A stretch of 54,818 nucleotides of DNA, taken from Verrucomicrobiota bacterium (GTDB taxonomy: Bacteria; Verrucomicrobiota; Verrucomicrobiia; Opitutales; JABDGR01). Below, piece after piece: positions 524 to 18,956 of this stretch. The notes beneath the pieces are model-generated. The model made no database searches and was not told the DNA's origin. It saw nothing but the letters and a program-made list of their open reading frames with translations. Positions within the stretch are counted from its first letter, which is position 1; each line of letters starts with the position of its first letter. The translations under genes and the position numbers were made by a program. Where the stretch lies: positions 1 to 54,818 of the forward strand of contig JABDGR010000003.1 of NCBI GenBank assembly GCA_013285985.1. Direction: 5' to 3'.

Positions 524-3301
524 ATGTTGACTCCAAAACCACAGTTGAATTTGCAACACGCGAAGGAATACTTTCGCGAGCATTTGAGCATCGGCGATTA
601 CTATGCTGAGAGTGAGACAGTTTCAGGGGAATGGTTCGGTGAGGCTGCGGAAAAGTTGGGTCTCAAAGGCAAGGTAGGTGAGAAAGAATTCTTGGCCCTG
701 TGCGAGGGGTTGAATCCGGGCACGGGCCAGAAATTGACCCTTCGGCAAAATGACAAGCGCCGGGAAGGTCGCAAGATGGTGGCTAATCGCCGGGTGTTTT
801 ATGACTTCACCATCAGCCCGCCTAAATCGGTTTCGGTGGTGGCGCTGATGCAGGATGTCCGTATTTTGGAACTGCACAATCAAGCGGTCAAAACGTCGAT
901 GGTGGAACTGGAAAAGTTCGCTGGAACGCGGGTGCGTAAGTCCGGCCAGAACGGGGAACGGGTGACCGGGAATATCGTGGGCGCGGCGTTTCAGCATGAC
1001 ACCAGCCGGGAACTTGACCCGCACCTGCATACCCATTGCGTTATTTTCAATGCCACCTTTGACCCGGTGGAAAACCATTGGAAGGCATTGGAGGCGTCCG
1101 GCATGTATCGGGCACAAAAGTTTGTGGAGCATTACTACTACCACGAACTGGCGAAGGGGCTGCGGAACTTCGGGTATGAAATCGTGCCTACCGCCCGCGA
1201 CTTTGAAATCAAACAGGTTCCGGCCAGCGTCATTGCCCAATTTTCCAAGCGGCATGAGCAAATCCACGCGGAAGCCAAAAGGCGAATCGAACGCGAGGGA
1301 TTGCGGGGCAATGCAGGCAACCTCCGCAAGCAGATCGCCCATGACGACAGGAAACGGAAAATCAAGGACTCGACCGCCAGCCAATTACGGCCCCATTGGG
1401 TAAAGCAATTGTCGGTCACGGATAAAGCGGCATTGGATTCCCTGTGGATTGCAAAGCAACACGTCCCGGTCAAAGCCGATGTTGCCGGTATCCTCGCTTG
1501 GGCGGATGAACACGTTTTTGAGCGGCGTTCCGTCGTGAATGATTACGAGCTAATGGCGGCGGCACTGGCGCATGGTCGCGGACAGGATTTTGATTTGGCG
1601 GCATTGCGCGAAGCGATTGAAAAACGTGGTTACGTCCGCGAAAAAGGCACGCATAGGCTCACGTCGCGCGAAATGTTGCGCTGCGAATACAGTATTATGA
1701 TGGTGGCTCGTGAGGGTCGTGATATGGAATTGCCCCTTAACCGGGATTACCAGCCGTCTCCGGCCTTGTCGGAAGAACAGGCAGCGGCAGTCAGGCACAT
1801 TCTAAAAAGCCGGGATTTCGTCACGCTGTTTCGCGGTGGCGCGGGCACCGGCAAAAGTTTCACCCTACGAGAAGTGATGAAGGGCATCCAAGCTGCCGGT
1901 CTTCCCGTGGTCGTCCTGGCTCCGCAACGCCAGCAAGTGGCCGATTTGTGCGCCGATGGTCTCGCCGCTACCACGGTGGCGCATTGCCTAGAGACTGGAA
2001 CGATGCCTCGGCGTGCGGTGGTGCTCTTGGATGAAGCGGGCCAAGTTGGCAGTAAGCAACTGAATCACCTCATGGCCTTGGTGAAAGCCCGTGATGGGCG
2101 GTTGATTCTGTCAGGCGACACCCGCCAGCATGGGGCTGTGCAGGCTTCGGATGCGCTCCGGGCCATTGAGAAATACAGCCAATTGAAAGCAGCGGAATTA
2201 AAATACATCCAGCGGCAGAATCCCGCTGCGGCAAAATCGGCCAAGGAGCGTGCATTTGTGCATGGCTACCGTCAGGCCGTCAAAGCGGCGGCGTCCGGGA
2301 ATATCGCCGAGTCATTCGACCGTCTAGAACGGCTGGGGTGCATCCGCGAGGTCGCGCCCGATGCTCGCCGCGAAACGCTGGCGCGGGAATACCTCGCCAG
2401 CCTTGAACGCAATGAAAGTGTCCTGGTCGTCGCGCAGACATGGCGTGAGGTCAATGCGGTGAACGACGCCATCCGCGAACAATTGAAGGCCAGTGGAAAA
2501 TTGAGCGGCGGCACGACGCTCACCGCTTATCAGGCGGTGGATGGCACTGAGGCCCAAAAACGTGAGGCCAGCTTCTACCATGCCGGTCAACGGGTTTATT
2601 TTTTGCAACGGTATGGCCGATTCGCCAAGGGTGAACTCTGTGAAATCGCCGGGGCCAATGAACACGGTGTGGTTCTGATGAAAAATGGCCGTCGCTCCAC
2701 ACTGAGTTACAATTATACAAATCGCATTGCGATTGCGGCCGCCTCTGAGTTGGAAATCGCTCCCGGTGACCGGCTGCAACTCAAATTCAATGGAAAATCG
2801 CTGGAAGGCCTTACGCTCACCAATGGCGAACTCCTGACCGTCCGCCGGGTGCGTAAAAACGGCTCGTTCGTTGTCGAAGATGACAGGGGGACACGAAAGA
2901 CCCTGTCGCCTTCGCAACGGCTCTTTAATCGCGGTTACGCCGTCACGTCCTATGCCTCCCAAGGCAAAACCGTGGACACGGTGCTCTTCGCCGATGCCGC
3001 GAACCGGGCTGCAACCAACTGCAATCAGTGGTATGTGGCGATTTCCCGTGGCCGCAAGCGCGTGGTCGTGTTCACCTCGGACAAAGCCGAATTGCGCGCC
3101 AATATCGAGCAAACTGGCGACCGTGGCCTCGCCTTGGACATCAAGCCATCTGCCCCGGTGGTGGCATTCTCCATCGGCCAGCGGGTCAGCACCCCGGAAT
3201 GGTCGCGCCGGGTTATGCAAGCCGCTGAATACACGCGATTGCATGAGGCCCACAGGCAGTTCGCCACCCGCCATGCGGCAAGCCATAAAATTACCTTGTA
3301 A
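524..3301 (+). CDS. mobF: MobF (TrwC/TraI-like) relaxase fused to an SF1 (RecD-like) helicase
   Basis: N-terminal DYY tyrosines, YDFTISPPKSVS, 3H motif HDTSRELDPHLHTH; helicase GGAGTGKS, LLDEAG, GDTRQH, GYAVTSYASQGKTVD. Confidence 0.95.
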   Translation: MLTPKPQLNLQHAKEYFREHLSIGDYYAESETVSGEWFGEAAEKLGLKGKVGEKEFLALCEGLNPGTGQKLTLRQNDKRREGRKMVANRRVFYDFTISPPKSVSVVALMQDVRILELHNQAVKTSMVELEKFAGTRVRKSGQNGERVTGNIVGAAFQHDTSRELDPHLHTHCVIFNATFDPVENHWKALEASGMYRAQKFVEHYYYHELAKGLRNFGYEIVPTARDFEIKQVPASVIAQFSKRHEQIHAEAKRRIEREGLRGNAGNLRKQIAHDDRKRKIKDSTASQLRPHWVKQLSVTDKAALDSLWIAKQHVPVKADVAGILAWADEHVFERRSVVNDYELMAAALAHGRGQDFDLAALREAIEKRGYVREKGTHRLTSREMLRCEYSIMMVAREGRDMELPLNRDYQPSPALSEEQAAAVRHILKSRDFVTLFRGGAGTGKSFTLREVMKGIQAAGLPVVVLAPQRQQVADLCADGLAATTVAHCLETGTMPRRAVVLLDEAGQVGSKQLNHLMALVKARDGRLILSGDTRQHGAVQASDALRAIEKYSQLKAAELKYIQRQNPAAAKSAKERAFVHGYRQAVKAAASGNIAESFDRLERLGCIREVAPDARRETLAREYLASLERNESVLVVAQTWREVNAVNDAIREQLKASGKLSGGTTLTAYQAVDGTEAQKREASFYHAGQRVYFLQRYGRFAKGELCEIAGANEHGVVLMKNGRRSTLSYNYTNRIAIAAASELEIAPGDRLQLKFNGKSLEGLTLTNGELLTVRRVRKNGSFVVEDDRGTRKTLSPSQRLFNRGYAVTSYASQGKTVDTVLFADAANRAATNCNQWYVAISRGRKRVVVFTSDKAELRANIEQTGDRGLALDIKPSAPVVAFSIGQRVSTPEWSRRVMQAAEYTRLHEAHRQFATRHAASHKITL

Positions 3302-3470
3302 ACGCATTTTTAGAGACTTTTCTCTGCGTCGGTAATAGCTCAAACCCTACTACACTGCCCGACCTTTGACCTCAAATGACTTTTGCTGCCAATTAAACAT
3401 CATTCAAAAGAAAAACCGCATCTTGAATATGCCTAGAAGTTCGGGTAAAAGCTCTGGCTCTTCAACCAAT

Positions 3471-5576
3471 ATGGCAAATAATTTTACATGGATACCTGCT
3501 TATCGTGAGATTGCCCAGCGGTTACTTGATTGGCAAGACCGCCAAGGTGAACTCATCGCCTTTCTTGAGCAGCTTCGCGCACAAGGGCTCACCATCACAC
3601 CGCTTACCGATCAAGATGACAAGGGGGCGCGATTTCTTCTACAGGAAATTGATCCATTTACTTTCTTTGGCGTTTTTAACAGACAAATTCGCAAAGAACA
3701 GCGGATGGCTATTATCGCTGAAGTTATTAAATTACTTGGTGTTCAAAGCGCATTGCCAAAGGATTTCGACGGCATCCCGGTTTTGAGCGCACTAAATTCA
3801 TGGTTCGTTTCTTACCGTCCATTGCGAAAAACCGATGATGTGCCCCGTTTATGGCGAGTATTTCGATTGGCTCTTGGGGAGAACCCACTTGACCAACCTG
3901 ATTTCCTGCGGGCATTTGATGAAGCACTTCAAGTCAGGCATACCAATCTCAATCTAACAATGGGCTTATTTTGGATACGGCCAGAATCTTTTTTAAATCT
4001 AGACCAGACCAATAGGCAATATCTCAAAATCAAACTGCCGCCTAGTGGTTTATCTGGTCAATATTATCGCGACGCAGTTCGGTTGCAATTGGCCAAAGTG
4101 AAGTCCCTTCCCGACTTATCCCATGAAGCCTGGGTTGCCAGCAAAACGAAGCCGGAATTGCAATCGCCAGAAGCGCAGATGACGCCCGAAAATAATTATT
4201 GGCTGCTGGGAGCTTACTGGTCTGACAATGATCCGACTGACCAAACGCAGCGTTTTTTAGACGAGGGCGTCTGGCAAAATGGATATGAAGATCGTTATCT
4301 TGATGAAGTCCGCTCAATGCGAGTCGGCGATAAAGTCGCCATAAAGGCAGCCTCGACTCAACGCCTAAATTTGCCTTTCGATGCGCGTGGCGAAACGGTT
4401 TCGCGGATGAGCATCAAAGCCGTTGGCACAGTTGTATCGAATCGTGGTGACGGTCGCACTGTCGAGGTCGAATGGGATACATCTTTTAAGCCCAAGGACT
4501 GGTATTTCTATACCTACCAGAAAACCGTATGGCAATTGCGCCCAGATGAGCCCAATGCCAAACGACTAATTGAATTCGTGTTCAATAATAAAGCGCAGGA
4601 CTACGAATGGTTCTGCCAAGAATGGTGGGACGTTGCCAAGAAGAAACAAGAGGCGTCTCCTGAGGCTAAGAAAACTAACTTGGTAAAACCCTATAGCGTG
4701 GACGATATGCTTGCTTCGGGCATTTTCCTCACCGAACCAGAAATTAAACAGACGCTAGATCGCCTTCAGTCCAAAAAGAATCTGATTTTACAAGGGCCTC
4801 CAGGAGTAGGAAAAAACTTTATTGCACGTAAACTCGCCTATGCTCTAATGGAAGAGATGGACGATGGCCGCATCGAAATGGTTCAGTTTCATCAGTCATA
4901 TTCCTACGAGGACTTCATCAGGGGATACCGCCCATTGCCTGAGCAAGCGGGAAAATTTGGATTGCAAAACGGAATTTTTTACGACTTTTGCCAACGCGCT
5001 AAAGACGATTCAGACCGCAAATATGTATTCATTATTGATGAGATTAATCGAGGCAACCTGAGCCAGATATTCGGTGAGTTGTTGATGCTCATAGAAGCAG
5101 ATAAGAGAGGCCCCGAAAATGTTTTGCCTCTCGTTTATCACAAAAAGGAAGAGCCGCGTTTTTACGTACCTAAGAACCTATACTTAATCGGCCTGATGAA
5201 TATAGCCGACCGATCTTTGGCGATGGTGGACTATGCTCTGCGGCGGCGTTTTGCTTTCATGTCGCTTAAGCCACAGTATAAGGGTGATCTTTTTCGGAAA
5301 TGGCTGCTTGATCGTGGCATGAGTGAAAAGCTCGCGGGCTTGATTGTAGATAGAATGGCGGCACTAAATCAGGAGATAGCGAATGACACTTTACTCGGAG
5401 AAAATTATCAGATTGGCCACAGTTTCTTTTGTCCCAAGGGCGGCAACTATGAAGGCTTAGATCGCACATGGTATGAAGCAATAGTCCAGACTGAGATTCT
5501 TCCTTTATTGAGGGAATATTGGTTCGATAACGCAAAACGCGCTGAACAGATTGCCGAAAAACTTTTGGCTCCATGA
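3471..5576 (+). CDS. mcrB: McrB-family AAA+ GTPase of a modification-dependent restriction system
   Basis: GPPGVGK Walker A, VQFHQSYSYEDFIRG, IIDEINRGN, MNIADRSLAMVDYALRRRF, IGHSFF. Start chosen at ATG 3471; the ORF is open from 3366. Confidence 0.93.
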   Translation: MANNFTWIPAYREIAQRLLDWQDRQGELIAFLEQLRAQGLTITPLTDQDDKGARFLLQEIDPFTFFGVFNRQIRKEQRMAIIAEVIKLLGVQSALPKDFDGIPVLSALNSWFVSYRPLRKTDDVPRLWRVFRLALGENPLDQPDFLRAFDEALQVRHTNLNLTMGLFWIRPESFLNLDQTNRQYLKIKLPPSGLSGQYYRDAVRLQLAKVKSLPDLSHEAWVASKTKPELQSPEAQMTPENNYWLLGAYWSDNDPTDQTQRFLDEGVWQNGYEDRYLDEVRSMRVGDKVAIKAASTQRLNLPFDARGETVSRMSIKAVGTVVSNRGDGRTVEVEWDTSFKPKDWYFYTYQKTVWQLRPDEPNAKRLIEFVFNNKAQDYEWFCQEWWDVAKKKQEASPEAKKTNLVKPYSVDDMLASGIFLTEPEIKQTLDRLQSKKNLILQGPPGVGKNFIARKLAYALMEEMDDGRIEMVQFHQSYSYEDFIRGYRPLPEQAGKFGLQNGIFYDFCQRAKDDSDRKYVFIIDEINRGNLSQIFGELLMLIEADKRGPENVLPLVYHKKEEPRFYVPKNLYLIGLMNIADRSLAMVDYALRRRFAFMSLKPQYKGDLFRKWLLDRGMSEKLAGLIVDRMAALNQEIANDTLLGENYQIGHSFFCPKGGNYEGLDRTWYEAIVQTEILPLLREYWFDNAKRAEQIAEKLLAP

Positions 5577-6703
5577 ATGCGATTGCCATAGAGAATTCTG
5601 CCGGAGAAGTTTCGGTCACTGAAACCGGAATCCCTATCCGCAATCTATGGTACATGTTGCTTTATGCTTGGAATGAAGTAGCGCTCAAATGCCAGTGGGA
5701 TGCCGAGGCCGATAAGTCTCCCACCCTGGACTCGCTACTTGCCTCAATATTGGCCGGCTTAGTCCAGCAACGTTTGCGCATCGGACTTGGGCGTGGCTAT
5801 ACAAGTGAGGCCAGATTGATTCGCAGCATTCGAGGGAGGATTGATTTTGCTGAAAGTTTGAAACGACTTGCTTTTGAAAACGGTCAGACATTCTGCCGCT
5901 ACCAGACCTATAACCACAATGTCTCTAAAAACCAGATCGTCCGCAGCACTCTGGCTCGCCTAGTACAGATGGGGCAGTTTGGCGTTGATCGGGTACGGGC
6001 GGAAGAGGTCAGGCACAAACTGCGTCGGTTAGTGCGCGACTTGGATGGGATTGATTTGATTGAGCTCAAGTTGGATTTGATTCGTCGTCAGCAATTCGAC
6101 CGGAACGATGCGGATTACCGCCTTATGCTCGCCATTTGTAATCTCCTCCTTCAGAGACAAATGCCCACTGAAACTGAAGGTTCTCACAAACTCCCTGGGC
6201 TGGATCGTGATGCTCTGACAATCTATCGTATTTACGAGCGATTCGTTGCCAATTTCTATAAACAGCATCTTTCCGAATGGTCAGTCACACCGCAAATGCG
6301 ATTAAGTTGGCACACGAAAACGGCATCGAAATACATGCCTATAATGTCGCCGGATTTAATTTTAAAACAAAAGGCTACGGGCCACATGACGGTTTTAGAT
6401 ACCAAGTTCACCGCCAAAAGTTTAATTCCTTCCCGTTGGGGAAATTGCGTCTTCGATTCTTCTCACCTCTATCAGATTTACGCCTACCTTAGATCGCAGG
6501 AACATCTTTCTGATTCCCACCGGGATGCTTCGGCCATTCTGCTTTATCCCACAATTCGGGAAAGCCTTGACGAGACAGTCGAGTTGCAGGGTCATCAAAT
6601 TCGTTTAGCGACCATTGATTTGTCCCTGCCTTGGGATGAAATCGAAAGCAAACTTCTTATGTTAGTTTCTCAACATGTTGAAAGGATAACATCCGAAATT
6701 TAA
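5573..6703 (+). CDS. mcrC: McrC-family PD-(D/E)XK nuclease subunit
   Basis: IPIRNLWYMLLYAW, IRGRIDF, YERFVANFY, PDL...VLDTKF, HLYQIYAYL; ATGA overlap with mcrB. Confidence 0.93.
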   Translation: MNAIAIENSAGEVSVTETGIPIRNLWYMLLYAWNEVALKCQWDAEADKSPTLDSLLASILAGLVQQRLRIGLGRGYTSEARLIRSIRGRIDFAESLKRLAFENGQTFCRYQTYNHNVSKNQIVRSTLARLVQMGQFGVDRVRAEEVRHKLRRLVRDLDGIDLIELKLDLIRRQQFDRNDADYRLMLAICNLLLQRQMPTETEGSHKLPGLDRDALTIYRIYERFVANFYKQHLSEWSVTPQMRLSWHTKTASKYMPIMSPDLILKQKATGHMTVLDTKFTAKSLIPSRWGNCVFDSSHLYQIYAYLRSQEHLSDSHRDASAILLYPTIRESLDETVELQGHQIRLATIDLSLPWDEIESKLLMLVSQHVERITSEI

Positions 6704-8316: not shown

Positions 8317-8799
8317 CTAACTCTTTTTGGGGGTTTGGCCCTTTTGGAGTTCTACTCTTTTGGCTGTTCTCCTGTCCCTTATCTCCTGTTGGAGTTTCCT
8401 CTCATTGCGATCGCGTCGCTCAAAATCTCGCTCCTCCCCCTTAAGTATGCTTGTGCCATATTTTTTAAGAAATTCCGCCAAACGCGCAACTTCAATTTCC
8501 AAATCCTTTTCACTTTTAGGGAATGGGGAACGATATGGCTCCCTTTCACGCCCATCATTAAGCTTTATCAGCACCCCAATACTAATTGGGCGAGTTTTAC
8601 CAGGGTCATCTCTTGACTTTCTTATACTTAAGTCGAGTTCATGACTCCATTGTTTATCATAATAAACTCCAACTTGAATCTTATCTGATTCATAGAAAAC
8701 AAATGGGTGCTTTGCTGTTTTACGTACAAATTTAAAATCGCTTTCCAAAAATGAAAAGTGGTGAATAGTTAATTCGACAAATTTGTCCCACAAGTCCAT
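8317..8799 (-). CDS. Putative cognate immunity protein of the RHS toxin
   Basis: 160 aa from ATG 8799, 1 nt after the RHS stop. AT-rich, no signal peptide; standard immunity position. Confidence 0.75.
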   Translation of the reverse strand: MDLWDKFVELTIHHFSFLESDFKFVRKTAKHPFVFYESDKIQVGVYYDKQWSHELDLSIRKSRDDPGKTRPISIGVLIKLNDGREREPYRSPFPKSEKDLEIEVARLAEFLKKYGTSILKGEERDFERRDRNERKLQQEIRDRRTAKRVELQKGQTPKKS

Positions 8800-8800
8800 A

Positions 8801-11800
8801 TTAGTTTGTTGGTGGTGTCCACTGGCCAGGATCCTGATTCCAACCGGATGAATCCAATAAGCCTCTTTCGGCATTTAGATAAGCCCCTCCTGTGTCATCC
8901 ATGTCGGAAGCATCTCGAATCGACAACCCCAAATCCATAATATCTTGGAGCTTGCCGAGATTTACTTGCAGGTTCGCTTCCATCGGATCGACATCAAACC
9001 AGTTTCTTAATGTAAATTCGCCTGGATTTAATGCCCCAGGTTGATCCAGGGCGCTGCCACGACCGATGACCAATCCAGATTCACCCCGTTCCCACGGTAG
9101 CGACTGGCCAAAATCCAACTCTAACTGCGTCGGCGATGCTGGCGAATTGGTCGTTAACCCACCCGGTGGCGTCGGCGATGCCGGCGCATCAGCAACCGGG
9201 TTTGACACACCTACAGACGGATCCGCTGCGGGAGCCGGGGGAGTGTCTGTGACAGGTGCAGGTCCAAGCGACTCTGTACCTGCTGGTGCCGTCGTCGCCG
9301 GAACATCTGGTGGTGGTTGAGCTGAGGGCTTGGGCGATGCAGCCCCTGGTGCATCCGGGGGAGCATCCGCCGGGGCATCAACATCTGCTCCGGCACCACC
9401 TAAAAGAACGAATCCTCCCACATTGGTCGCAATTCCTTTCGGAGTAGTGAAGGACTGACCAACCTGCTTCATTGTGTCCAACGCCGCGCCCCCGGCAGCC
9501 TTAAGAGCCGTCCCGGGATTTTGCACGATTGCGCCAATACCCGTGTTACCGGTCAAGGCGTCGCCCGCCAGATCGCCGATTTGCTGGTAACCACTGACCA
9601 CACCCTTGCCGATGGTATAGGGCGATTCCGCCAGGCCAACGGCATATTCCCCCGCTCCTTGCGCTGCCCCTGAACCGAACGCGCCAAACCACTCTCCCAT
9701 AGTAAGAGGAGTTCCTAAAAAGAGCCCTTGAGCGTCGAAACAGGTCCAGGGGTTTTGGCGCACGTAGGCGTAGAGGTTGGGGCCGTCGATGAAGCCGGCG
9801 GGGTCCTTGGTGAGGAAGCGGTCGGCGCCCATGAGGAAGTCGCGCATGCCTTCGTTGATGATGCCGGGGGCGTCCTCGCTCTTGGTGTTGGCGAAGAGGT
9901 CGCCCTGGTTGACGCCCTGCCAGTCCACGGCCGCGGGGGTGGCGGGCGACTGCGTCCATTCCTCGGCGCCCCAGGCGCGGGGGGCGAGGCCCTGGCCCGC
10001 GGCTTCGTGCTCGCCGAAGGCGTTGTAGGCCGACTGGCTGACCAACTGGCCGGTGTCGGCCGTTTGCGCGACGACGTCGCCGCGCCCATCATAATGGTAA
10101 TACTTGGCGGTGGGCGGATTGGAGCCGGACACAAACTCCGGATTGACGGCGTAGAGCACGCCGCCGACGCCCCCGCCCCAGTCGGAGCCGCGGACGTATT
10201 CATTTTGCAGGGTGAAGGCGCTCGAAGCGTAACTTTCGCTCCATACATTGGTGAAGTTGGCGGACACATACCGGCGCACGGACTCCCCGCCGGAGAAGGA
10301 AAAGAGCTGGCTGTTGCCGGTGTCCGGCGAATAGGCGTAATATGTACTGGAGACGCGCCGCGAGCGGTAATCGTAGGCGTAATTGCGGGAGCTATCATTA
10401 GCACTGGCGGGGAGGTTGGCGGAATAGTCCGTCACGTTACCGTTCGTGCTTTGACCAATTGCCACGAGCCGATTTTCGGCATCGTAATGAAAGCCGTAGT
10501 CGGTCCCGATCTCGTACGGATTGCCGTTACTGTCGACGGAGATATTGGTGGTTAAAGAGGTGACGGAGTCGTGGTAGCTGGTCAGCGCGTTGTCGCTGCG
10601 GTAAGTGTAGGTGATGTTGGCGAGGGTGGTCGTCGTGTTGCTGATGGTTTGGGCCACCAGCTTGTTCGTGCGGTTGAAGCCGTTGTCATAAGTGTAATTG
10701 CTGGTGTAGGTGGTGGTGCCCACGGCGAGGGCCTCCGAGGTCAAACGGTTGTCGCTGTCGTAGGCGAGCTTGACCGTCCGGTTGCCGAGCTGGCCCTGGG
10801 GATAGGCCTCGTCCTGCTCCTTGAGGTTGGCAAATTCGTCATAGGCCAGATCGTAGTCATAGAGCGTCGAATTGCCGTTGGGGGTATCGTTCTTAATCTC
10901 CGTCTGCCGGCCGAGGGCGTCAAAGGTCGTGTCGATGTAGGCGCTATTGCCCTGGATGAGGCGGACGCGGTTGCCGGCGGCGTCGTAACGGTAGGTCGTC
11001 TGGCGGTCGGCGCCATCCACCAGGGTATCGAGGCGGTTGAGGTTGTCGTAGGTGGAGGTGAGGGTGTGCGCATCGCTGCGCCCGTAGCCGTAGGTGGCAG
11101 TGAGCCGGTTGCTCGCGGCGTCGTAGGTGTAGGTGTTGGTGAAGCCGTTCGAGAGATTGGAGGAGAGGTTCCCCAGCAGGGAGCCAAACGTGTTGGCGCT
11201 GAAGGTGCCGTTGAAAACCGCGCCCTCATTCTCCGCCAGCATGCGCCCGAGGCCATCGTAGGCGTAGGCCACGTTGCTCACCGTTGAATTGTTGGCATAA
11301 TTTTCGGCGACGGCAATGAGTTCGCCGGCGTTGTCGTAATGAAGCGCGCGCCCTTCGGTGCCGTAACTTGTGACGCCCCAGAGATTGATGGACTGAAGGC
11401 TGCCAGTATAAGACACGCCCGTCTGCCGGTTGCGCGAATCGTAGGTGTAGTTGGTGATGTGACCCAGCGCATCCGTCCGGCTGAGTTTGTTCAGGGCGTT
11501 GTAAGTGAAGGTCGTAGTGAGACTGCCCGGGTAAACCGTAGTCAGCAATCGGTCGAGGCCATCGTAGGTGAAGGTGTTGGCGTGGCTTAGCCCGTCCACC
11601 AGCGCCACGCGGTTGCCGGCTTCGTCGTAGAAATTTTTGACGATGATGCCGGCGGCGTCGGTGGTCGTCAGGAGGCGGTTGAGGGCGTCGTAGGTGTTGT
11701 TCGCGGAAATCCGGTCGAAGGTGGCGCTCGAAGCCGCAGCTGACGAGGCCGTGCCCTGATGCACGGAAAGCACGTTGCCGTTTTGGTCGTAGGCCCGGCC

Positions 11801-14800
11801 GGTGACCAGATGGTGCCCGGAGATCATCGTCCCATTGGCAGCCATGTAACTCACTGTGGGCGTGAAGGTGTAGGTCGGGCGATTGGCGTCGTCATAGAGG
11901 GTCACCGTGGTATTCCCGCGCGCGTCGGTGACGGAGGTTGGGTTGCCCGCAGCGTCGTAGGCGGTCAGCACCGTCGGGCTGACAAAGGTTCCGTTGGCGG
12001 AAGTGCTCCAGTCCTCCACCTCCGGCGCAATGGAGGCGATTTTCCGATTCCGCTCATCGTAAACAAACTCCGAAACGTGGCCCAAGGGGTCAATGACCTG
12101 CACGGCGTTGCCATTGGCGTCATATTGCGTCTGCGTGACGGAAGAATTGGAGGTAATGGCGCCCGTCACGGGATCGGGGGAAGTCGCCGCCACGAGGCGA
12201 CCGGCGGCATCGAACTGTTTTTGGCTGACGCGGCCCAATTCGTCGGTGGACTGGTAGGCAAAGCCGGTGGAAGTATAGGCGGTGGAGACGGTGGTGTTGT
12301 CGGTGAAAGTGGTTTGGGTGAGGCGGTTGAGGGCATCGTACTCATACGAGGTTGTTTCCACGTTGCCCCCGAGGCTGCCGATGGTGCCGCTGCCATCCGC
12401 GCTTACGGAGACGGAAAGCAAATTGCCCACCGGGTCATAAGACTTCTTGGACACGGCGTATTTGTTGCCGGAGGTGGCGAACTGCACGCTCTGCGCGACG
12501 GGGAGGTAGCGCTCATCGTAAGCGACGGTCGTGGTGTAGCCGCGCGGGTCCACGGTGCTGGTAGGCTTGAAAGAACTGGAATCGAACGCGTTGCCGCCGG
12601 GATTGGTGCCGTTGTAATAGTAATAGGTGTGCAAGGCGGTGCTCGAAGTCGCATTGCCCCCGGTGGCGTTGAAGCCGATGCCCACCGACGGCGTGGTCAG
12701 CTCGGTGAGGCGGTTGAGGCCGTCGTACGAATAGGTGGCGTTGCCGCCGTTCGGGTCGGTGACGCTCAGGCGCGCGCCGGTGTTGCTGTAGGTGTAGCTC
12801 GTGGTCAGATTGCCCAAGCTGCTGATTTCGTTCGTGCCATCCATGACCCGGGTCACCGACAGCACCCGGTTGAGCGGGTCGTAGGTCTTGGTGGTTTCGT
12901 GGCCCAGCTCATCGGTCTCCGTCAGGACGTTGCCGCGGCCGTCGTAGGTGTAACTGCGGGTCGAATTATCCGGATAAATCACCGAGGTCAGCCGGTGGCG
13001 GTGATCGTAGTTGAAGTAAGTGATATGGCCGTTCGGGTCGGTCTCGCTCAGCTTGTCGCCACCGGTTGAGTAAGTGTAGGAAGTGGTGAGGTTTAAGCCG
13101 GACGGATCCACGTGCTGGGCAGACACCCGACCGAGGGAGTCCAGGTCGTAACTGACCTCCATATCCTGCACCCAACCCGGGTCATCGGGATAGTCGGTAT
13201 AGTATGAGGAAAAGTTGACATCGCGGACAGTTTTATCGGTCACCACCCCCGGGAACGTCGTGTTGCCGTAGGCGTAATCTGTTTCGGAGGTGACGTTGGA
13301 GTAGGAATCCTCAAAATAGCTGTATTCGCCGTCGGCATGGATCTCGGTCAGGCGATTGTCAAACCCATCGAAATCGTAGTGCGTCGCGTGGCCGTTCTCG
13401 TCCATGATATCACTCATCTGGCGCGTATTATAAACGTAGGTGAATGTCTTGGTGATGTTTGTCGCGGTGCCGTTGATGGTAACGGTGCGCGTCTGGGAGG
13501 TCGGGTCATCGAAGTAGCCGAAAAAGCCGTTGCTCGAAGTGTCATATACCCCGGGCAGGGTGTGGACGTAGGCCGCTGGCACATTCCAGCTATCAGCATG
13601 GGTGAACGTCGTCGTGTGTCCGCTGAAATCGGTGGCGGACATGAGCGCCATTCCCGCCGCGGAGTCGAACTCGTAGGACTCGTTGCCGAGGGTCGTATTG
13701 CCATCCTTGTAAGTCAAGGTCAAGTTCCCCCAGGCGACCAATTCGTCCACCGAACCGGGCGACTCGGCGGCGATAACCGATGGAACATCCTGCAGCATCA
13801 CCGAAGGATTCGACCAGTTGTAATCGGTGACGTGGCCGTCGGCGTCGGTCACCACGGTGTGTCGCCGCCAGCCCGAGTTGAGGAGCGCTCCGGTATTGCC
13901 GAAGCCGACTTCAATGTAAGAATCATTCTCGAATTGGCCCAACGGGATGGTCGTATTGCCATTCGTCAGGGAAATATTTGCCACCATGAGTGGTCGTCCC
14001 GGGGTGAAATAATAATTCCCATAATTGTTGAAGCTGACGAAGCCAATGGGATGACTGTCAGACAAGTTACCGGTGTAACTATACTGGTAGTTGAAATGGT
14101 AGGTATTGGCATTCTGATCTTTGATTTGACTCAGATTGAGATGGTAAAAATCGCCGCCGGGATCCCCGCTCGGCCCGGGGGTCGAATCATCTTCGGTGGT
14201 GATGTTATAGGTGTAATTAGAGGTAACGTTCATCGCGTCGGTCACACTCGTCAGTTCATAAAAGTTGCCGGAGCCGACCGGGTCGGCAGTCTTGGTGTAA
14301 TTATATTGCGTGAGGTCTTGGTCGCTGTCCCAGACTTTTCTGACCAGGCCGTTTTCATCCTGCTGGATGTAAATGGTCATATTGCCGGCAGCGGTGGTGT
14401 CATTGCCGCCGGTGCCGGTGATGGTCTCGGGCACTAGCGTGTCATTGGCCGCGTAGGCATAGGTCAGATTTCCGACGCCAGCGAGCCCCGTCGCCGTGGT
14501 GGCGCGGAAATAGGAATAGGAAAACGCACCACTGCCTGGCAGCACCCGATCCATCGGGATGTTGCTGTAAACCCCGTCCAAATCCGCGTGTTCGTAAGTC
14601 ACGGTGGTGCCGAATTTTTTGGTCAAGGTAAGGGTGGCATTCGCAATGGTTTCATTGCCGCTCAACGCCGAAGTCATGGCCAAAGTGGCCAAGTAAGGAT
14701 TTTTCTCGTGCTTGCCCGTCGGGTAAGGGACAAAGGTGCAAAAATTGCCGGTGGCGTTCCAGACCCCGAGGAAGTGGTATTCATTGCCATTTTCATCGCT

Positions 14801-17590
14801 GGCATAAATATTGGGATAGGGGCTGTTGCTGGCCGATTCCCAGCGCAAAGAAGCCACGAGGTTGGATTGCCAGCCCGGGCCAAAAGGCTCGTCCGGACGT
14901 TCGTGGGGCCGCAGCCCGCGGCGGGAAGACCAGGTTTCCTCATTGTAAACGCGGTTCACCGTCAAGGGCAGATCCGTTCCGGGAATTTTTTCATAAACAT
15001 CGGATACACTGTGTCGGAGTCCGAGTGTCAACGCGTCCACAAAGGTCTCCTCGTCCTGCTGGTCGGACTCGCTGGCCGTCTGCGGCTTGCCATCGGGCAG
15101 CGGGCGGCCGTTGAGGGCAACCTTGCGGTATTCCGCGCCGGCAACTTCCTCATTCGCAGAGGAGAATGCGCCTGGAGACACGGCCTTTTGGATGGTGAAG
15201 GTCTTGCTGCCCAAGCTCAGGTTGCCGACCGCGTAGTAATCAACGGTGATATTGAAAGTATCCCCTTCGACCGCCGAGGGGGCATAGGCGTAGATGGTGT
15301 TCTCGGTATAATTGACACCATCTGGAACAGAGAAATCGTATTGCCGATCATCTATTTCCTCCCCATTGGCCAGAGGCCCAAATGTTCCGTCATCGGAATG
15401 CGTGCCCCATAATTGAAGCGCGCCGGCATCCGTTCCATTCCAGGAAACAATCACATGGTCGTAGGGATAGTCCGTGAGAAAATAATATGTCTGTTCGTTC
15501 AAATTCGGAATGAATAGCGGCGACAAAACTCCGCCGCCAAACTGGATGGTTCCGCCCAGCTCGGCTTGGCTGACGGGGCCGTAGGCGTCGAAAACGGTGG
15601 GAAACGGCTCCAGCATTGCGAACGCCGTGCCGTCCTCTCCGAAATTTAAATCGGGATTGAGGGTGCTGTCCGTGGAGTCCAAAGTTAAGCTGTCAGTTAC
15701 ATTACCACCAATAGTTATATTGGACGTCGCGGTCGTAATCGTCATGTTGCTTGGACCAATAATATAGGCGCCCTCATCATACTCCCAGGGGATAAACCCA
15801 ACATACCAATTGACCGTCGTGTTCACATCCGTCGGCAGATAGCTCAGGCGGTATTCATCGACGCTGTAACCAAAATAATAAGGATACCCCCAGAAAGCAT
15901 TGTTAAACCTCGCATCAACATCTCCGAGCTCCGGCGGGTAATAATGATTCCAACCACCATCTACCCAATCATCACTTACATCGGCGTCCCAATCATAGTA
16001 ATCTGGAGGAGCATACCAGGCAAAGGCTGCGTCTCCTTCATCATAAAACCACTCCGCGCAGCGGAAGTCGATGGATTGAATCAACGGCACATTATAGGCC
16101 ACGGCATTGCTCGTGCCGATGAGGGTGGACCCATTATAGGCCTCGACTTGATAGAAATACCGGTATCCTCCATAGGGGATGGTGTCGTTAGCCGTAAAGG
16201 TGGGGTCGAAGACATTGCCGGCAAAACTATCGAGGGCTTCCCAGGTTCCGTCTATCCCGACTTTGCGTTCCAATTGATAGGTGATATTGGCATTATAGCC
16301 GGCGGAGGCCCAGCCCAGGCTGACACTGGTGACATCGTCCGGGTCAAATTGTAATTGAAGATTATACGGCACGGCCCCGTTGGTAAACGGATCGACCTGG
16401 ATGCCGGCCAGGCTGCCCGTTCCGAGATAAGTGCCGTTGGCAGCGTAATTGCCGACTCCTTGTGTAATATTGCCGCTGCTGCCGCTGCTGCCGCTGCCGT
16501 TTTGGGTGAGGAAAAAGCTGGCATCGGCAAACAGGTTGGTGCTGGGGGCGGTGAAGTGGATCCATTGCGTGGCGCTGGTGTTGCCCATGGTGTAATTCAT
16601 GGAGATGTTGCCGTTGGAGTCCGTGACCAACGTCCCCGAGGTGCTGTTGACGCCGCTGATGGAGACGTGGCCGTCGCCGGGGAGGACCACATAGTGGATG
16701 GGAGCGCCAGTCACATTGCTGATGGTGCCTGAAACATTCTTGGCCAGGTGGGCAATGATGGATTGGCTGAGCGTGCTGCCGGCATTGCCGGACTGGGGGC
16801 TGCCCTGGGTGACAGTCAAAGCCAGGTTGGCGGCGATGTTGGCGGCGTAGATGTATTCCGTGGGATTCTCGCCGGCCACAAATTTGGTCCAATAGGTGAC
16901 ATTGTCGCCGAGGGTGCTGTTGGATTCATTGGACAAATTGGCGTCGGTGATGTTTAGCCCGAACGAACCAGCCCAGACGTAAAAGCCCAGCAGGTTATTG
17001 TTAGCGGCGTGATAAGTGGACAGGTCGAAGGAGAAGGCCATCTTGAGCTGGCCGAGGTTGGCGAGGTCAAGCCGTTGATTGAGCCAGTTGTTATAAGTGG
17101 TGGCGTTGTAACCCGTCTGCCCTGGGCCGGGTGGAATCGTATGCCAGGGGTAATAGGGCGGCGTAGTGTCGTTGGTCCAAAAAGCATCCGTATAGCCATT
17201 CGCTTCGAGGCTGGCCTTGGTGTTGAAGCCGAGGAAATTCAACCGGTCGTAAAAGGGCTTGGCGACATACTCAAGCTGGCCGATGGTGGCGGGGGCAAAA
17301 TTGGTGCTGGTGTTGGCAGTGAAGTTGGCCACGAGAGCGGTAACGTTCGACCCGGCGCCGCCGACCGCCGAAAAATACTGGTTTAAATAATTGCCCGCCT
17401 GGGAGGCGGTGTATTTGAGCTGCCCAAGGTTGAGCACCCCATAGTTGTTCGGCGTGGCGCTGGAGTTGATGATGGCGGTGCCATTGGTGGTGTCGCTCCA
17501 CCAAGCCGGGGGCGGGTCAGCCCAGACCCAAGCCGAGGCGCAGAGCAAAGTGACGAGTCCGCCAAGGAGAAGTGGATGGTCGCGGCGCAT
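8801..17590 (-). CDS. Large secreted RHS/YD-repeat polymorphic toxin
   Basis: Signal peptide from ATG 17590 (ORF open to 17656); Ig-like and FN3-like segments; many YD repeats; RHS core YYHYDGRGDV...RFLTKDPAGFIDGPNLYAYVRQNPWTCFDAQGL; ~306-aa C-terminal extension. Confidence 0.95.
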   Translation of the reverse strand: MRRDHPLLLGGLVTLLCASAWVWADPPPAWWSDTTNGTAIINSSATPNNYGVLNLGQLKYTASQAGNYLNQYFSAVGGAGSNVTALVANFTANTSTNFAPATIGQLEYVAKPFYDRLNFLGFNTKASLEANGYTDAFWTNDTTPPYYPWHTIPPGPGQTGYNATTYNNWLNQRLDLANLGQLKMAFSFDLSTYHAANNNLLGFYVWAGSFGLNITDANLSNESNSTLGDNVTYWTKFVAGENPTEYIYAANIAANLALTVTQGSPQSGNAGSTLSQSIIAHLAKNVSGTISNVTGAPIHYVVLPGDGHVSISGVNSTSGTLVTDSNGNISMNYTMGNTSATQWIHFTAPSTNLFADASFFLTQNGSGSSGSSGNITQGVGNYAANGTYLGTGSLAGIQVDPFTNGAVPYNLQLQFDPDDVTSVSLGWASAGYNANITYQLERKVGIDGTWEALDSFAGNVFDPTFTANDTIPYGGYRYFYQVEAYNGSTLIGTSNAVAYNVPLIQSIDFRCAEWFYDEGDAAFAWYAPPDYYDWDADVSDDWVDGGWNHYYPPELGDVDARFNNAFWGYPYYFGYSVDEYRLSYLPTDVNTTVNWYVGFIPWEYDEGAYIIGPSNMTITTATSNITIGGNVTDSLTLDSTDSTLNPDLNFGEDGTAFAMLEPFPTVFDAYGPVSQAELGGTIQFGGGVLSPLFIPNLNEQTYYFLTDYPYDHVIVSWNGTDAGALQLWGTHSDDGTFGPLANGEEIDDRQYDFSVPDGVNYTENTIYAYAPSAVEGDTFNITVDYYAVGNLSLGSKTFTIQKAVSPGAFSSANEEVAGAEYRKVALNGRPLPDGKPQTASESDQQDEETFVDALTLGLRHSVSDVYEKIPGTDLPLTVNRVYNEETWSSRRGLRPHERPDEPFGPGWQSNLVASLRWESASNSPYPNIYASDENGNEYHFLGVWNATGNFCTFVPYPTGKHEKNPYLATLAMTSALSGNETIANATLTLTKKFGTTVTYEHADLDGVYSNIPMDRVLPGSGAFSYSYFRATTATGLAGVGNLTYAYAANDTLVPETITGTGGNDTTAAGNMTIYIQQDENGLVRKVWDSDQDLTQYNYTKTADPVGSGNFYELTSVTDAMNVTSNYTYNITTEDDSTPGPSGDPGGDFYHLNLSQIKDQNANTYHFNYQYSYTGNLSDSHPIGFVSFNNYGNYYFTPGRPLMVANISLTNGNTTIPLGQFENDSYIEVGFGNTGALLNSGWRRHTVVTDADGHVTDYNWSNPSVMLQDVPSVIAAESPGSVDELVAWGNLTLTYKDGNTTLGNESYEFDSAAGMALMSATDFSGHTTTFTHADSWNVPAAYVHTLPGVYDTSSNGFFGYFDDPTSQTRTVTINGTATNITKTFTYVYNTRQMSDIMDENGHATHYDFDGFDNRLTEIHADGEYSYFEDSYSNVTSETDYAYGNTTFPGVVTDKTVRDVNFSSYYTDYPDDPGWVQDMEVSYDLDSLGRVSAQHVDPSGLNLTTSYTYSTGGDKLSETDPNGHITYFNYDHRHRLTSVIYPDNSTRSYTYDGRGNVLTETDELGHETTKTYDPLNRVLSVTRVMDGTNEISSLGNLTTSYTYSNTGARLSVTDPNGGNATYSYDGLNRLTELTTPSVGIGFNATGGNATSSTALHTYYYYNGTNPGGNAFDSSSFKPTSTVDPRGYTTTVAYDERYLPVAQSVQFATSGNKYAVSKKSYDPVGNLLSVSVSADGSGTIGSLGGNVETTSYEYDALNRLTQTTFTDNTTVSTAYTSTGFAYQSTDELGRVSQKQFDAAGRLVAATSPDPVTGAITSNSSVTQTQYDANGNAVQVIDPLGHVSEFVYDERNRKIASIAPEVEDWSTSANGTFVSPTVLTAYDAAGNPTSVTDARGNTTVTLYDDANRPTYTFTPTVSYMAANGTMISGHHLVTGRAYDQNGNVLSVHQGTASSAAASSATFDRISANNTYDALNRLLTTTDAAGIIVKNFYDEAGNRVALVDGLSHANTFTYDGLDRLLTTVYPGSLTTTFTYNALNKLSRTDALGHITNYTYDSRNRQTGVSYTGSLQSINLWGVTSYGTEGRALHYDNAGELIAVAENYANNSTVSNVAYAYDGLGRMLAENEGAVFNGTFSANTFGSLLGNLSSNLSNGFTNTYTYDAASNRLTATYGYGRSDAHTLTSTYDNLNRLDTLVDGADRQTTYRYDAAGNRVRLIQGNSAYIDTTFDALGRQTEIKNDTPNGNSTLYDYDLAYDEFANLKEQDEAYPQGQLGNRTVKLAYDSDNRLTSEALAVGTTTYTSNYTYDNGFNRTNKLVAQTISNTTTTLANITYTYRSDNALTSYHDSVTSLTTNISVDSNGNPYEIGTDYGFHYDAENRLVAIGQSTNGNVTDYSANLPASANDSSRNYAYDYRSRRVSSTYYAYSPDTGNSQLFSFSGGESVRRYVSANFTNVWSESYASSAFTLQNEYVRGSDWGGGVGGVLYAVNPEFVSGSNPPTAKYYHYDGRGDVVAQTADTGQLVSQSAYNAFGEHEAAGQGLAPRAWGAEEWTQSPATPAAVDWQGVNQGDLFANTKSEDAPGIINEGMRDFLMGADRFLTKDPAGFIDGPNLYAYVRQNPWTCFDAQGLFLGTPLTMGEWFGAFGSGAAQGAGEYAVGLAESPYTIGKGVVSGYQQIGDLAGDALTGNTGIGAIVQNPGTALKAAGGAALDTMKQVGQSFTTPKGIATNVGGFVLLGGAGADVDAPADAPPDAPGAASPKPSAQPPPDVPATTAPAGTESLGPAPVTDTPPAPAADPSVGVSNPVADAPASPTPPGGLTTNSPASPTQLELDFGQSLPWERGESGLVIGRGSALDQPGALNPGEFTLRNWFDVDPMEANLQVNLGKLQDIMDLGLSIRDASDMDDTGGAYLNAERGLLDSSGWNQDPGQWTPPTN

Positions 17591-17656
17591 GGGGTTTACG
17601 ATGACGCGAAAAAAGTTGGGGGAAATTGAGCGGGAAAAGCGCGGGCAAAGGGACAA

Positions 17657-18892
17657 TCAGTCGCCGAAGGTGCCCATGAGGATATCGCCTTGAGGTTCCA
17701 CCGACACATTGCCCGTGAAGTTCACGGTGTTGGTAAGGGTGGTGGACGTGCCGTTGAAGGTCGCGTTGCCATTGACAGTCAGGTTGCCGTTGAGCGTGGT
17801 ATTGCCGTTTTTCAGCATGACCAGCGCGTTGGAGAGATTGCCCGAGCTCGTGCCGTTGCCGATAACGAAGAGCGGGTCGGTGGAGACCCAGGTGGTATTG
17901 CCGGAACCTGAACCCGAAATTGCGGCGTTCCACTGGCCCACCACGATGGAATTGAAATAAGCCGCGGTGACATTGCTGCCGATGGCGAAGCTGCCGGCGC
18001 CGGAAGCGACCGTGCCGTTGCCGATGGCCAAGGCGTGGCTGCCGGTGGCGCTGCCACCAATCCCCAACGCCCCTGCGGAATTGTAGGTGCTAAACAAGGC
18101 GGAAGCGGTCACCGGGGTGATGCTGGCTGAACTGTTGGCCGTCGCGTTAAAGAACGTGAGAGACTGGCCGGTGACATTGATCGAAATGGTGCTGGAATTG
18201 CCGTCGCTAACCGTCAGCGTGCCGTTGGTATTATTCAGGGCGATATTGCCATTCTGCGGTTCAAACGTCAGGTTGTGGCCACTGGTGGGATTGTTAATCG
18301 TGAGATTGCCGCTGTTGGCCAGGGTCATCTGGGTTTCCAGCACCGAGGAATTGGACATGGCGGCGAGCCCGTTTTGCTGCCAGACCCAGGTGGTGTTGCC
18401 GTCGTACCCGGTAAAATAAATGGTGGGGTAATAATAGGAGCCGCTCTTGTTCTGGCTGATATTGAAGGCCGGGGTGTCGGTGCTCGTATAGGTCAGGTCG
18501 CCCAGGTCCAGGCTGCTGTGCAGCCAGGAATTGGCCACGCCCCAGGACTCGGACATGCCCGGCGAAAAGCCGGAGGTCAGTTCAAAGTTTCCGGTGATGG
18601 CGAACGAAGTCGCGTAATTGCCATACACATTGTTGGCGTAAACATTTCCGACATTCAAGTTGTTGGTTATATTAACGGAATCGCCGACGGACAGCGTCTG
18701 GCTGACATTCAGATTGTCATCCACCCAGACGTTGCCGTTGACTTCAGCATCGCTTTCAAAATAGGAGGTGCCGGAAAAAACATTGTTGGGATCTGAAATG
18801 AAATCCTGGGCGTTGAGCCGAGGGCTGGCCAAGACGAAGAAGCCCAGCAACAGCAGGCCGAAAAAGCGCGGGAGAAATGTGGTGGTTTTCAT
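17657..18892 (-). CDS. Secreted beta-rich fibre/adhesin-like protein with YadA-head-like repeats
   Basis: Signal peptide; ALAIGNGTVASGAGSFAIG repeats; DPLFVIGNG; GNLTVNGNAT repeats; ends VEPQGDILMGTFGD. Confidence 0.8.
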   Translation of the reverse strand: MKTTTFLPRFFGLLLLGFFVLASPRLNAQDFISDPNNVFSGTSYFESDAEVNGNVWVDDNLNVSQTLSVGDSVNITNNLNVGNVYANNVYGNYATSFAITGNFELTSGFSPGMSESWGVANSWLHSSLDLGDLTYTSTDTPAFNISQNKSGSYYYPTIYFTGYDGNTTWVWQQNGLAAMSNSSVLETQMTLANSGNLTINNPTSGHNLTFEPQNGNIALNNTNGTLTVSDGNSSTISINVTGQSLTFFNATANSSASITPVTASALFSTYNSAGALGIGGSATGSHALAIGNGTVASGAGSFAIGSNVTAAYFNSIVVGQWNAAISGSGSGNTTWVSTDPLFVIGNGTSSGNLSNALVMLKNGNTTLNGNLTVNGNATFNGTSTTLTNTVNFTGNVSVEPQGDILMGTFGD

Positions 18893-18956
18893 GGCGGATT
18901 GGGTAAAAAATGAGTTGGTTAGTTTATGGGAAAGAATTTATGCGTGGAGGAATGGT

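Follow-up and report, generated by a model that had tools for sequence, protein, structure and literature searches.

DAVNxxQL is the neck motif of trimeric autotransporter adhesins, whose three identical chains contribute one motif each and carry head, neck, stalk and anchor in one polypeptide. In a stretch of 54,818 nucleotides from a Verrucomicrobiota bacterium of the Opitutales (GenBank assembly GCA_013285985.1, contig JABDGR010000003.1, positions 1 to 54,818 of the forward strand, hereafter the window), three motifs of this kind occur in a single chain, at the N-terminus of an RHS/YD-repeat polymorphic toxin (8801..17590, minus strand; 2929 residues from an ATG at 17590, stop codon at 8801-8803) encoded directly behind a putative fibre gene. 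What would one polypeptide need three neck motifs for, and what has the neighbouring fibre to do with them? An earlier note, made from the sequence alone, had suggested that the three copies form a single-chain pseudo-trimeric neck which caps the adjacent trimeric fibre as a functional PAAR analogue. Based on the computational analysis described here, we consider it rather probable that the domain is a single-chain pseudo-trimeric neck that takes up the three C-terminal tails of the upstream fibre and thus serves as a 3:1 mount.

The triple-motif domain spans about 170 residues (17009..17521, minus strand), with PxWW and three neck-like units, and is proposed to be a three-fold socket. It follows a Sec-type signal peptide (17519..17590, minus strand) that has a basic start and a hydrophobic core and ends in VWA, as judged by eye from the translation, and homologues have a similar N-terminus ahead of PxWW. 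PPAWW lies at 17498-17512 (minus strand), and its P and both W are invariant or almost invariant across the family; in the alignments denoted A1 and A4, P5 and W7 are invariant and W8 is kept in at least 90%. The motifs NLGQLK, TIGQLE and NLGQLK were found exactly where the earlier note had placed them, behind the signal peptide and PPAWW. Motif 1 (NLGQLK, 17414-17431, minus strand) marks the start of a helix at model residues 32-49, with G33 and Q34 invariant in A1. Motif 2 (TIGQLE, 17270-17287, minus strand) has the family consensus NLGQLKAVAKPFYDRL and begins helix 80-96, and motif 3 (17042-17059, minus strand), NLGQLK and then MAFSFDL, has a short helix at 156-162. In a test against chance, three or more GQL appeared in 2 of 100,000 shuffles of the 240-residue domain, and three GQL within 150 residues in none of 3000 shuffles of the whole toxin. 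In a six-frame scan of the remainder of the genome with a relaxed motif (1.5 Mb in size, 50% complete), 10 other open reading frames had one match each, and three matches were found only in the toxin. When the units were aligned to one another by profile-profile comparison, probabilities of 97.8, 96.8 and 96.6% were obtained over 27, 18 and 17 columns, and we therefore regard the three units as true repeats of about 17-27 residues. The consensus of the repeat unit is roughly [ND][YF]APxN[LI]GQLKxV.

To define the family, residues 46-285 of the translated frame were searched against 1.84 billion cluster representatives. The search returned 1416 proteins at E<=1e-3, 357 at E<=1e-10 and 9 at E<=1e-30, with the window protein as the top match; within its own genome the profile matched it at 2.3e-65. 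Copies of the motif xxGQ[LVIAM][KRQEN] were counted in the first 350 residues of the best 150 representatives (103 to 5532 residues long). Exactly three copies, the number that the earlier note had expected homologues to keep, were present in 118, two in 23, one in 5, none in 3 and four in 1, and many members with fewer motifs resemble fragments. PxWW within the first 120 residues was counted by eye in 136 of the 150. The consensus of A1, a 69-row family alignment for which mostly short rows were chosen, reads signal peptide and PxWW, NYAPxNLGQLKxVAxQAKxxLD, GGAG, NYAPxNLGQLKAVAKPFYDRL, YPW, NYAPANLGQLKxVFSFDL and, often, calcium-binding TSP3 repeats. We propose to recognize members by PxWW and three N[LI]GQLK units in about 170 residues after the signal peptide, an arrangement that the toxin has, together with a tail-bearing gene upstream on the same strand, which in the window is the fibre gene P0002, ending in GDILMGTFGD. 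The window's copy of the domain matches 0 Pfam or NCBIfam families, and the 69 members match TSP3_bac (26), weakly YadA_stalk (9, best E 2.1e-4), RHS_repeat (1) and EF-hand_6 (1). As such, the domain is a large family without a Pfam or NCBIfam model.

The domain family is nearly confined to Verrucomicrobiota and their relatives. For the comparison of neighbourhoods, 80 related loci were recovered with a 6-row alignment, one genome per species. They are mostly from Verrucomicrobiota (Opitutales, Chthoniobacterales, Verrucomicrobiales, Puniceicoccales and Methylacidiphilaceae), with a few from Kiritimatiellia and Victivallales. Three typical fibre-socket pairs came from bins labelled WWE3, Pseudomonadota and Sphingobacterium (L002, L006 and L046), for which mis-binning is likely because they cluster with verrucomicrobial sequences in the tree. 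In a phylum-wide profile scan, the motif part was covered in 22 genomes among the matches listed; the tally of 129 of 201 genomes was rejected as a census because the TSP3 repeats inside the A1 profile match alone. The sequence behind the domain varied among 12 long homologues, comprising RHS, RCC1 propellers, Laminin_G_3 (LamG), FG-GAP, Big_1 and DUF900. Since the cargo varies and the domain and the tail of the upstream partner stay constant, the domain appears to be a generic connector.

AlphaFold2 run on the single domain sequence gave a predicted local distance difference test score (pLDDT) of 32.9 and was useless, and the run with the 69-row A1 gave a pLDDT of 87.4 and a predicted template modelling score (pTM) of 0.78. 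In this model the local structure was the same at every motif, with beta-bridge residues at positions -2 and 0 and a helix starting from GQ (32-49, 80-96 and 156-162). Of the amphipathic segment that had been described after each motif, the helical part holds, as a model helix begins at each GQL. Foldseek searches with the domain model returned nothing at E<=1e-3 from the PDB and 0 of 105 rows at E<=1e-3 from BFVD, and the ESM Atlas gave no usable match to the domain. A Foldseek-independent scan of 48,161 chains reached Z>=5 in two chains only, both of them pseudo-trimeric triple SLH domains: 6bt4_A (Z 5.8, root-mean-square deviation 4.8, 106 aligned residues) and 6cwc_A (Z 5.3, root-mean-square deviation 4.7, 104 aligned residues), each over model residues 1-168. 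By sequence, the best match of the family profile among all PDB sequences was the neck of SadA (2yo3_A, E 0.04, 16.6 bits), over 41 residues of the first unit, running through the motif into the helix. Considering this match and the weak YadA_stalk matches in 9 of the 69 members, the likeness to a trimeric-autotransporter neck that the earlier note had drawn is weak but specific. A match to a characterised domain of another function, named in that note as a ground for abandoning the idea, did not turn up in the Pfam, NCBIfam or structure searches.

The partner of the toxin in this proposal is P0002 (17657..18892, minus strand), a protein of 411 residues with a signal peptide and YadA-head-like repeats in its translation. 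Its gene immediately precedes that of the toxin on the same strand, with 66 nt between the P0002 stop codon and the RHS start codon. The Pfam YadA_head match of P0002 scored 22.3 bits, under the cut-off of 25, and the homologue in locus L007 scored 56 bits. A profile of 44 C-termini of upstream proteins, denoted A3, matched solved YadA-type heads from 6e-26 to 7.7e-7: BpaC at 6e-26, CbpF at 8.9e-15, a Hep_Hag protein at 2.1e-10, UspA1 at 1.4e-8 and YadA at 1.6e-8, with further matches to EibD and SadA; the top match carries a high composition bias flag in HMMER. By this profile the fibre has YadA-type head repeats, though P0002 alone stayed under the cut-off. P0002 ends 11 residues past the start of a conserved C-terminal tail, QGDILMGTFGD (17660..17692, minus strand), which we propose as the plug. 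No neck, stalk or anchor family matched P0002, no adhesin anchor family matched any upstream protein tested, and YadA_anchor was not among the Pfam and NCBIfam matches of P0002, of the second fibre protein P0003 or of the RHS protein at E<=0.1. Judged from these sequences, the pair is not a trimeric autotransporter (type Vc), given that no YadA_anchor match was found and that the neck-like motif lies off the head chain.

Across the loci, the conserved part of the upstream frames is their extreme end. With P0002 and P0003 as queries, plain tblastn placed a relative immediately upstream in 29 of the 70 loci whose upstream sequence reaches at least 1500 bp, and an iterated profile did so in 46 loci, on the same strand in all but one. 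Among 4698 six-frame open reading frames of at least 70 residues in the 80 loci, GD[ILV]xMGx[FY] occurred within the last 30 residues of 55, of which 52 lie on the same strand and at most 1.6 kb upstream of the domain. The remaining three are a second tandem fibre (L003), a frame at a contig end (L017) and a further copy (L074). Counted by locus, a tail-bearing gene was upstream in 51 of the 74 loci for which 900 bp or more of upstream sequence was available, and the relaxed tail motif, with the variants GGIxMG and GDIPM[IL], gave 58 pairs. As a reciprocal check, five near-complete genomes, about 23.5 Mb together, were scanned with a degenerate DNA pattern for the tail. The pattern had 7 matches and the reversed control 0; 5 of the 7 were about 150-1350 nt upstream, on the same strand, of one of 11 domain matches, and with a narrower pattern 2 of 2 matches in the same genomes were upstream of the domain. 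The bodies that carry this tail differ, as the same tail was also found on a collagen triple helix behind CBM96 (L042 and L059), on Kelch (L037) and on Gly_rich_2 (L025 and L047). By a crude hydropathy rule, 36 fibres have a signal-peptide-like start; the fibres otherwise vary at the N-terminus, and no conserved N-terminal anchor was found among them. So the upstream proteins look, from their sequences, like exported, trimer-forming or fibre-like proteins with one constant C-terminal tail and variable bodies that are probably ligand-binding. Because the tail alone is conserved while the bodies change, which would otherwise be hard to explain, the tail seems to have a function tied to the downstream gene.

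Tails and sockets fall into two matching types. All 16 tails of the form MGxF-G were paired with sockets that have N at motif position -7 (NYAP). Tails of the form MGx[FY]-T were paired with D at -7 (DYA or DFA), 33 in total, 31 of which had two or more D and 2 of which had one. Of 43 pairs, 42 were concordant in tail type and socket type. The two types are found in the same taxa and also together in one genome, where they are correctly paired (L012 versus L049 and L058). By these sequences, tail and socket appear to travel as a unit in two classes, a pattern that does not amount to independent statistical proof of contact.

We then modeled the complex from three chains of the P0002 C-terminus (its last 160 residues, with alignment A3) and one chain of the 240-residue domain (with alignment A1), which was the scored partner. 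The score was 0.74 (0.75, 0.73 and 0.74 in the runs) versus 0.00 for the best of 3 controls, and the score mark used is reached by 58 of 80 solved complexes and by 2 of 110 mismatched pairs. Contact agreement between the runs was at least 93% and the pLDDT of the partner at least 78. On the fibre side, the predicted interface was made by residues 144-160, which are the tail, of all three copies, and on the domain side by residues 1-2, 16-20, 22-38, 66-86, 108-115, 125-132, 147-162 and 164, stretches that surround motifs 1, 2 and 3. Residues 31, 34, 37 and 38 of motif 1 were contacted by the tail of fibre copy 2, residues 79 and 82 of motif 2 by that of copy 1, and residues 156, 159 and 160 of motif 3 were also contacted. 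In the tightest contacts listed, one tail lay on residues of motifs 1 and 3 and another on motif 2. Such contacts would be expected if each groove of a three-helix arrangement took up one tail. The suggestion that three copies in one chain fit the adjacent trimeric fibre is thus supported computationally by the upstream tail, by the match of A3 to solved heads and by a 3:1 model that scored above the controls.

From these results a mechanism can be drawn. In the mature RHS toxin, the first ~170 residues would be a single-chain, pseudo-trimeric copy of the adhesin neck, in which the three units ([ND][YF]APxN[LI]GQLK and a helix) would pack into a three-fold socket. The upstream gene would supply a Sec-exported trimeric fibre that has a YadA-type head and the tail QGD[IL]xMGxF and is devoid of neck, stalk and membrane anchor. 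Each fibre trimer would then insert its three tails into the three grooves of the socket, and the resulting 3:1 complex would amount to the adhesin head-neck junction remade from two genes. A fibre tail and one unit placed end to end are about as long as a canonical neck and of similar character in our own informal comparison with the SadA stretch. Exchangeable trimeric ligand-binding fibres could in this way be mounted on monomeric cargo, here the RHS toxin, and the fibre would probably target or tether the cargo. Actual binding, the 3:1 stoichiometry and the targeting role are what we infer from the analysis. For this arrangement, "socket" or "split neck" is a better description than "cap". 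A wider proposal, which we put forward tentatively and would not yet wager on, is that Verrucomicrobiota and their relatives possess an undescribed plug-and-socket system with the neck split over two genes. In such a system, swappable Sec-exported trimeric fibres (YadA heads, collagen-CBM96 lectins, Kelch propellers) sharing one tail would dock 3:1 to a single-chain socket on monomeric cargo, giving fibre-guided toxins and giant surface proteins, and at least two specificity classes (F-G/N-type and F-T/D-type) would keep pairs separate within one cell.

Several points weigh against the split neck. The family, the three-copy rule, the gene pair, the homology of the fibre to solved heads and the predicted interface were all obtained by computation, and all of the support is computational and none of it experimental. 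The sequence similarity to necks is marginal (E 0.04 and weak Pfam YadA_stalk matches), and the pseudo-C3 symmetry is inferred solely from contact lists and secondary structure of the model. A Z value below 8, or below about 13 for helical folds, may mean merely a common arrangement, so the two triple SLH matches sit under the safe level and give a hint of three-fold architecture rather than a classification. The complex, with four chains and its own alignments, is unlike the cases on which the predictor was calibrated, and the predictor may recall solved adhesin head-neck structures, in which case the pass may show likeness and not binding; in general, a pass lends support to binding without demonstrating it. 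The strict tail was absent upstream in 23 of the 74 loci. A tree of 43 sockets, built after masking the -7 columns, accounts for the tail types with 2 changes and for the socket types with 1, and an independent-pairs test of the co-variation was without power (1-2 independent pairs, p = 1). In the window itself, motif 2 terminates in E and not K, and motif 3 is without the usual NYAP prefix. The domain is internal in 4 of the 150 homologues, and no secretion gene is conserved near the pair to account for outer-membrane crossing.

We also considered that the domain may be an export or sorting module read by a dedicated outer-membrane or secretion machine, like the TPS domain of two-partner secretion, with the fibre as a co-exported accessory or assembly factor that binds transiently. 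The domain is indeed N-terminal, right behind the signal peptide, in 146 of the 150 homologues, it is fused to very large and diverse passengers, and the family is confined to one superphylum, as is often the case with lineage-specific sorting signals. However, no transporter or other family such as a secretion machine was found conserved beside the pair, the next cluster being present in 9 of the 80 loci with a weak CarboxypepD_reg match and looking like a passenger domain. Small stand-alone domain proteins, in frames of 229-315 residues with little beyond the domain, are present inside large contigs and fit a structural piece better than a leader, and the partner is fibre-like rather than chaperone-like. 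Considering these points, we regard an export module as quite unlikely.

A second possibility is that the domain is a cell-envelope anchor like triple SLH, a pseudo-trimer that binds a cell-wall or outer-membrane glycan and holds large secreted proteins at the surface, with the fibre linked for another reason or with both functions coexisting. Triple SLH domains supply the two best structural matches, and the Foldseek probabilities of SLH entries (0.08-0.09) were the highest in the PDB and BFVD lists. Like the triple SLH of Sap (6bt4) and SpaA (6cwc), the domain has, within a single chain, three repeats of about 50 residues and comes immediately behind the signal peptide of diverse, unrelated extracellular proteins. 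On the other hand, the structural alignments show 6-7% identity, Pfam SLH (PF00395) matched 0 of the 69 members at E<=0.01, and the Z values are common for helical folds. The ligand of SLH is a pyruvylated cell-wall polymer according to the PDB entry titles, whereas the ligand predicted here is a protein tail. An anchor would also leave the conserved upstream tail and the motif-region interface of the complex model unexplained, and we regard it as quite unlikely. Both the SLH-like anchor and the export module are compatible with binding of the fibre and do not exclude it.

A third reading takes the motifs for no more than a helix cap, specific to the lineage, in a helical domain of ordinary kind that is linked to its neighbour by co-inheritance in a mobile cassette and without contact. 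In its favour, the co-variation of tail and socket needs only 1-2 tree changes, the operon adjoins TrwC relaxase and McrBC genes, and RHS loci are known to be mobile. Against it, the tail is the sole conserved part of upstream proteins whose bodies shift from YadA head to collagen/CBM96 to Kelch, and the complex model scored 0.74 versus 0.00. We regard this reading as very unlikely.

Returning to the split neck, its closest relatives in form are the necks of adhesins such as YadA and SadA (Pfam YadA_stalk, PF05662). In both, a motif, here [A][PV]xN[LV]GQLK, runs into a helix, comes behind a YadA-type head, here supplied by the preceding gene, and, in the model, three motifs face three chains. 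The differences are that here a single chain of another protein carries all three motifs, that the head protein stops before the neck, and that the continuation is a monomeric cargo. In type VI secretion, PAAR sits on the VgrG spike as a single chain with internal three-fold pseudo-symmetry and adapts a monomeric toxin, often RHS, to the end of a trimer. As regards the functional PAAR analogue of the earlier note, the analogy of one chain adapting a monomeric toxin to a trimer can be kept, and the remainder cannot. PAAR (PF05488) had no match at E<=0.1 in the window proteins, and both partners have Sec-type signal peptides, so that they do not form a cytoplasmically loaded spike. The domain model is helical with short beta-bridges and not a beta cone, and the trimer offers flexible C-terminal tails and not a blunt beta-helix tip. 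By analogy, the socket might be described as a neck in form and a PAAR in logic. Phage tail-fibre and tailspike adaptors and Tc toxins likewise couple a modular receptor-binding oligomer non-covalently to a separate payload, and in Tc toxins the payload is RHS, with TcB-TcC forming an RHS cocoon that works with TcA. They differ from the present pair in stoichiometry and type of interface, and a Pfam search of the window proteins found no TcA- or TcB-type families.

A literature search for the motif strings gave no relevant description, and nothing was found that joins "trimeric autotransporter", "neck" and "Verrucomicrobia". The polymorphic-toxin survey of Zhang et al. 2012 (PMC3482391) gives, in its main text, other N-terminal modules for Sec-dependent toxins, and there the words "YadA", "Hep_Hag" and "trimeric" have 0 occurrences; its supplements may list more. 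If the pairing is true, it would be a new trimer-to-monomer joint, an adhesin neck remade from three chains plus one, and a targeting device for those Sec-exported RHS toxins that lack type VI, Tc or two-partner partners. It would give a testable role to a domain of more than 1000 protein clusters and to its partner tail, neither of which has a Pfam or NCBIfam model. The connector is small (tail about 15 residues, socket about 170) and seemingly modular over heads and cargos, with possible use in defined 3:1 protein assemblies. The pairing is widespread, sharply defined and directly testable, and experiments are possible because a cultured carrier is available, L072 being a named culture-collection strain.

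The remainder of the toxin is that of an RHS protein. The enclosing open reading frame is 8801..17656 (minus strand), with the ATG at 17590 as the most likely start according to the list of frames and the translation, and an identical 2929-residue database representative exists (P0004). Pfam RHS_repeat matched at E 1.5e-62 in 13 stretches and NCBIfam YD_repeat_2x (TIGR01643) at 2.5e-32, which identifies RHS/YD shell repeats. The end of the shell is marked by the RHS-associated core (9722..9913, minus strand; NCBIfam TIGR03696 Rhs_assc_core, residues 2582-2645, 35.9 bits versus a cut-off of 32.5). Beyond the core lies the C-terminal toxin part of about 300 residues (8804-9721, minus strand), and the last 299 residues matched no Pfam family at E<=0.01. 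A protein with RHS/YD shell repeats and an RHS-associated core before a variable C-terminus is an RHS polymorphic toxin. A frame of 185 residues (8317-8874, minus strand) overlaps the 3' end of the RHS gene by 74 nt, which is the expected position of an immunity gene, and matched no Pfam family at E<=0.01.

Upstream of P0002 lies the second fibre gene, P0003 (18957..20678, minus strand), a P0002 paralogue of 573 residues with 44% identity by tblastn. Its N-terminus has an extra part of about 200 residues with a Gly8-Pro4 run, and its variant tail is KGDIPLISN (18960-18986, minus strand). Tails akin to it, GDIPM[IL], are found in L043, L064 and L076 and pair there with D-type sockets; because the RHS socket of the window is N-type, P0003 may serve another partner or be degenerate. 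Elsewhere, tandem duplications were seen as two consecutive fibres that share a tail (L003 and L006), as two adjacent small socket genes (G081:C4:243716-244902) and also in L074, which suggests that heteromeric or alternative assemblies are possible. Fusions of fibre and socket were not found, and the 4 homologues of 150 with an internal domain have other N-terminal parts with no tail motif. Among the cargo proteins no common C-terminal anchor was found. A similar hydrophobic strand, LxVFTPL or LxVxxxLR, forms the very C-terminus of many of the small stand-alone socket proteins and of some larger ones, behind the TSP3 repeats (for example P0015, P0016, P0022, P0074, P0077, P0082 and P0087 in A1), and could be a second docking or sorting signal.

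Sequons of the form N-x-S/T occur at about double the expected frequency in the RHS shell and in both fibres (8801-20678). RHS residues 23-2650 have 87 versus 42.3 +/- 5.5 in 2000 shuffles (maximum 61), P0002 has 25 versus 13.2 expected (shuffle maximum 23) and P0003 has 22 versus 9.1 expected (shuffle maximum 19), and in the C-terminal toxin part 0 of 12 Asn are in a sequon. The sequon density is 3-6 per 100 residues in these proteins versus a genome background of 0.52, and a frame of 6622 residues on contig C1 has 318 sequons. The STT3/PglB family had one weak match in the genome (G000:C62:208-522(-), 26 bits versus a cut-off of 24.5) and, among 14 control genomes, was matched solely in 4 archaea. 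The excess, counted from sequence, could reflect N-glycosylation of secreted giants. Upstream of the fibre genes, a homologue of the lipase maturation factor family is encoded divergently (20878-22587, plus strand; LMF1 E 3.1e-61, LMF1_C E 1.7e-39). Beside the toxin operon, positions 524-6703 of the window (plus strand) encode a TrwC-type relaxase/helicase (E 1.8e-80) and then McrB-like AAA_5 and McrC (E 2.2e-32), and these relaxase and McrBC neighbours suggest the context of a mobile or integrative element.

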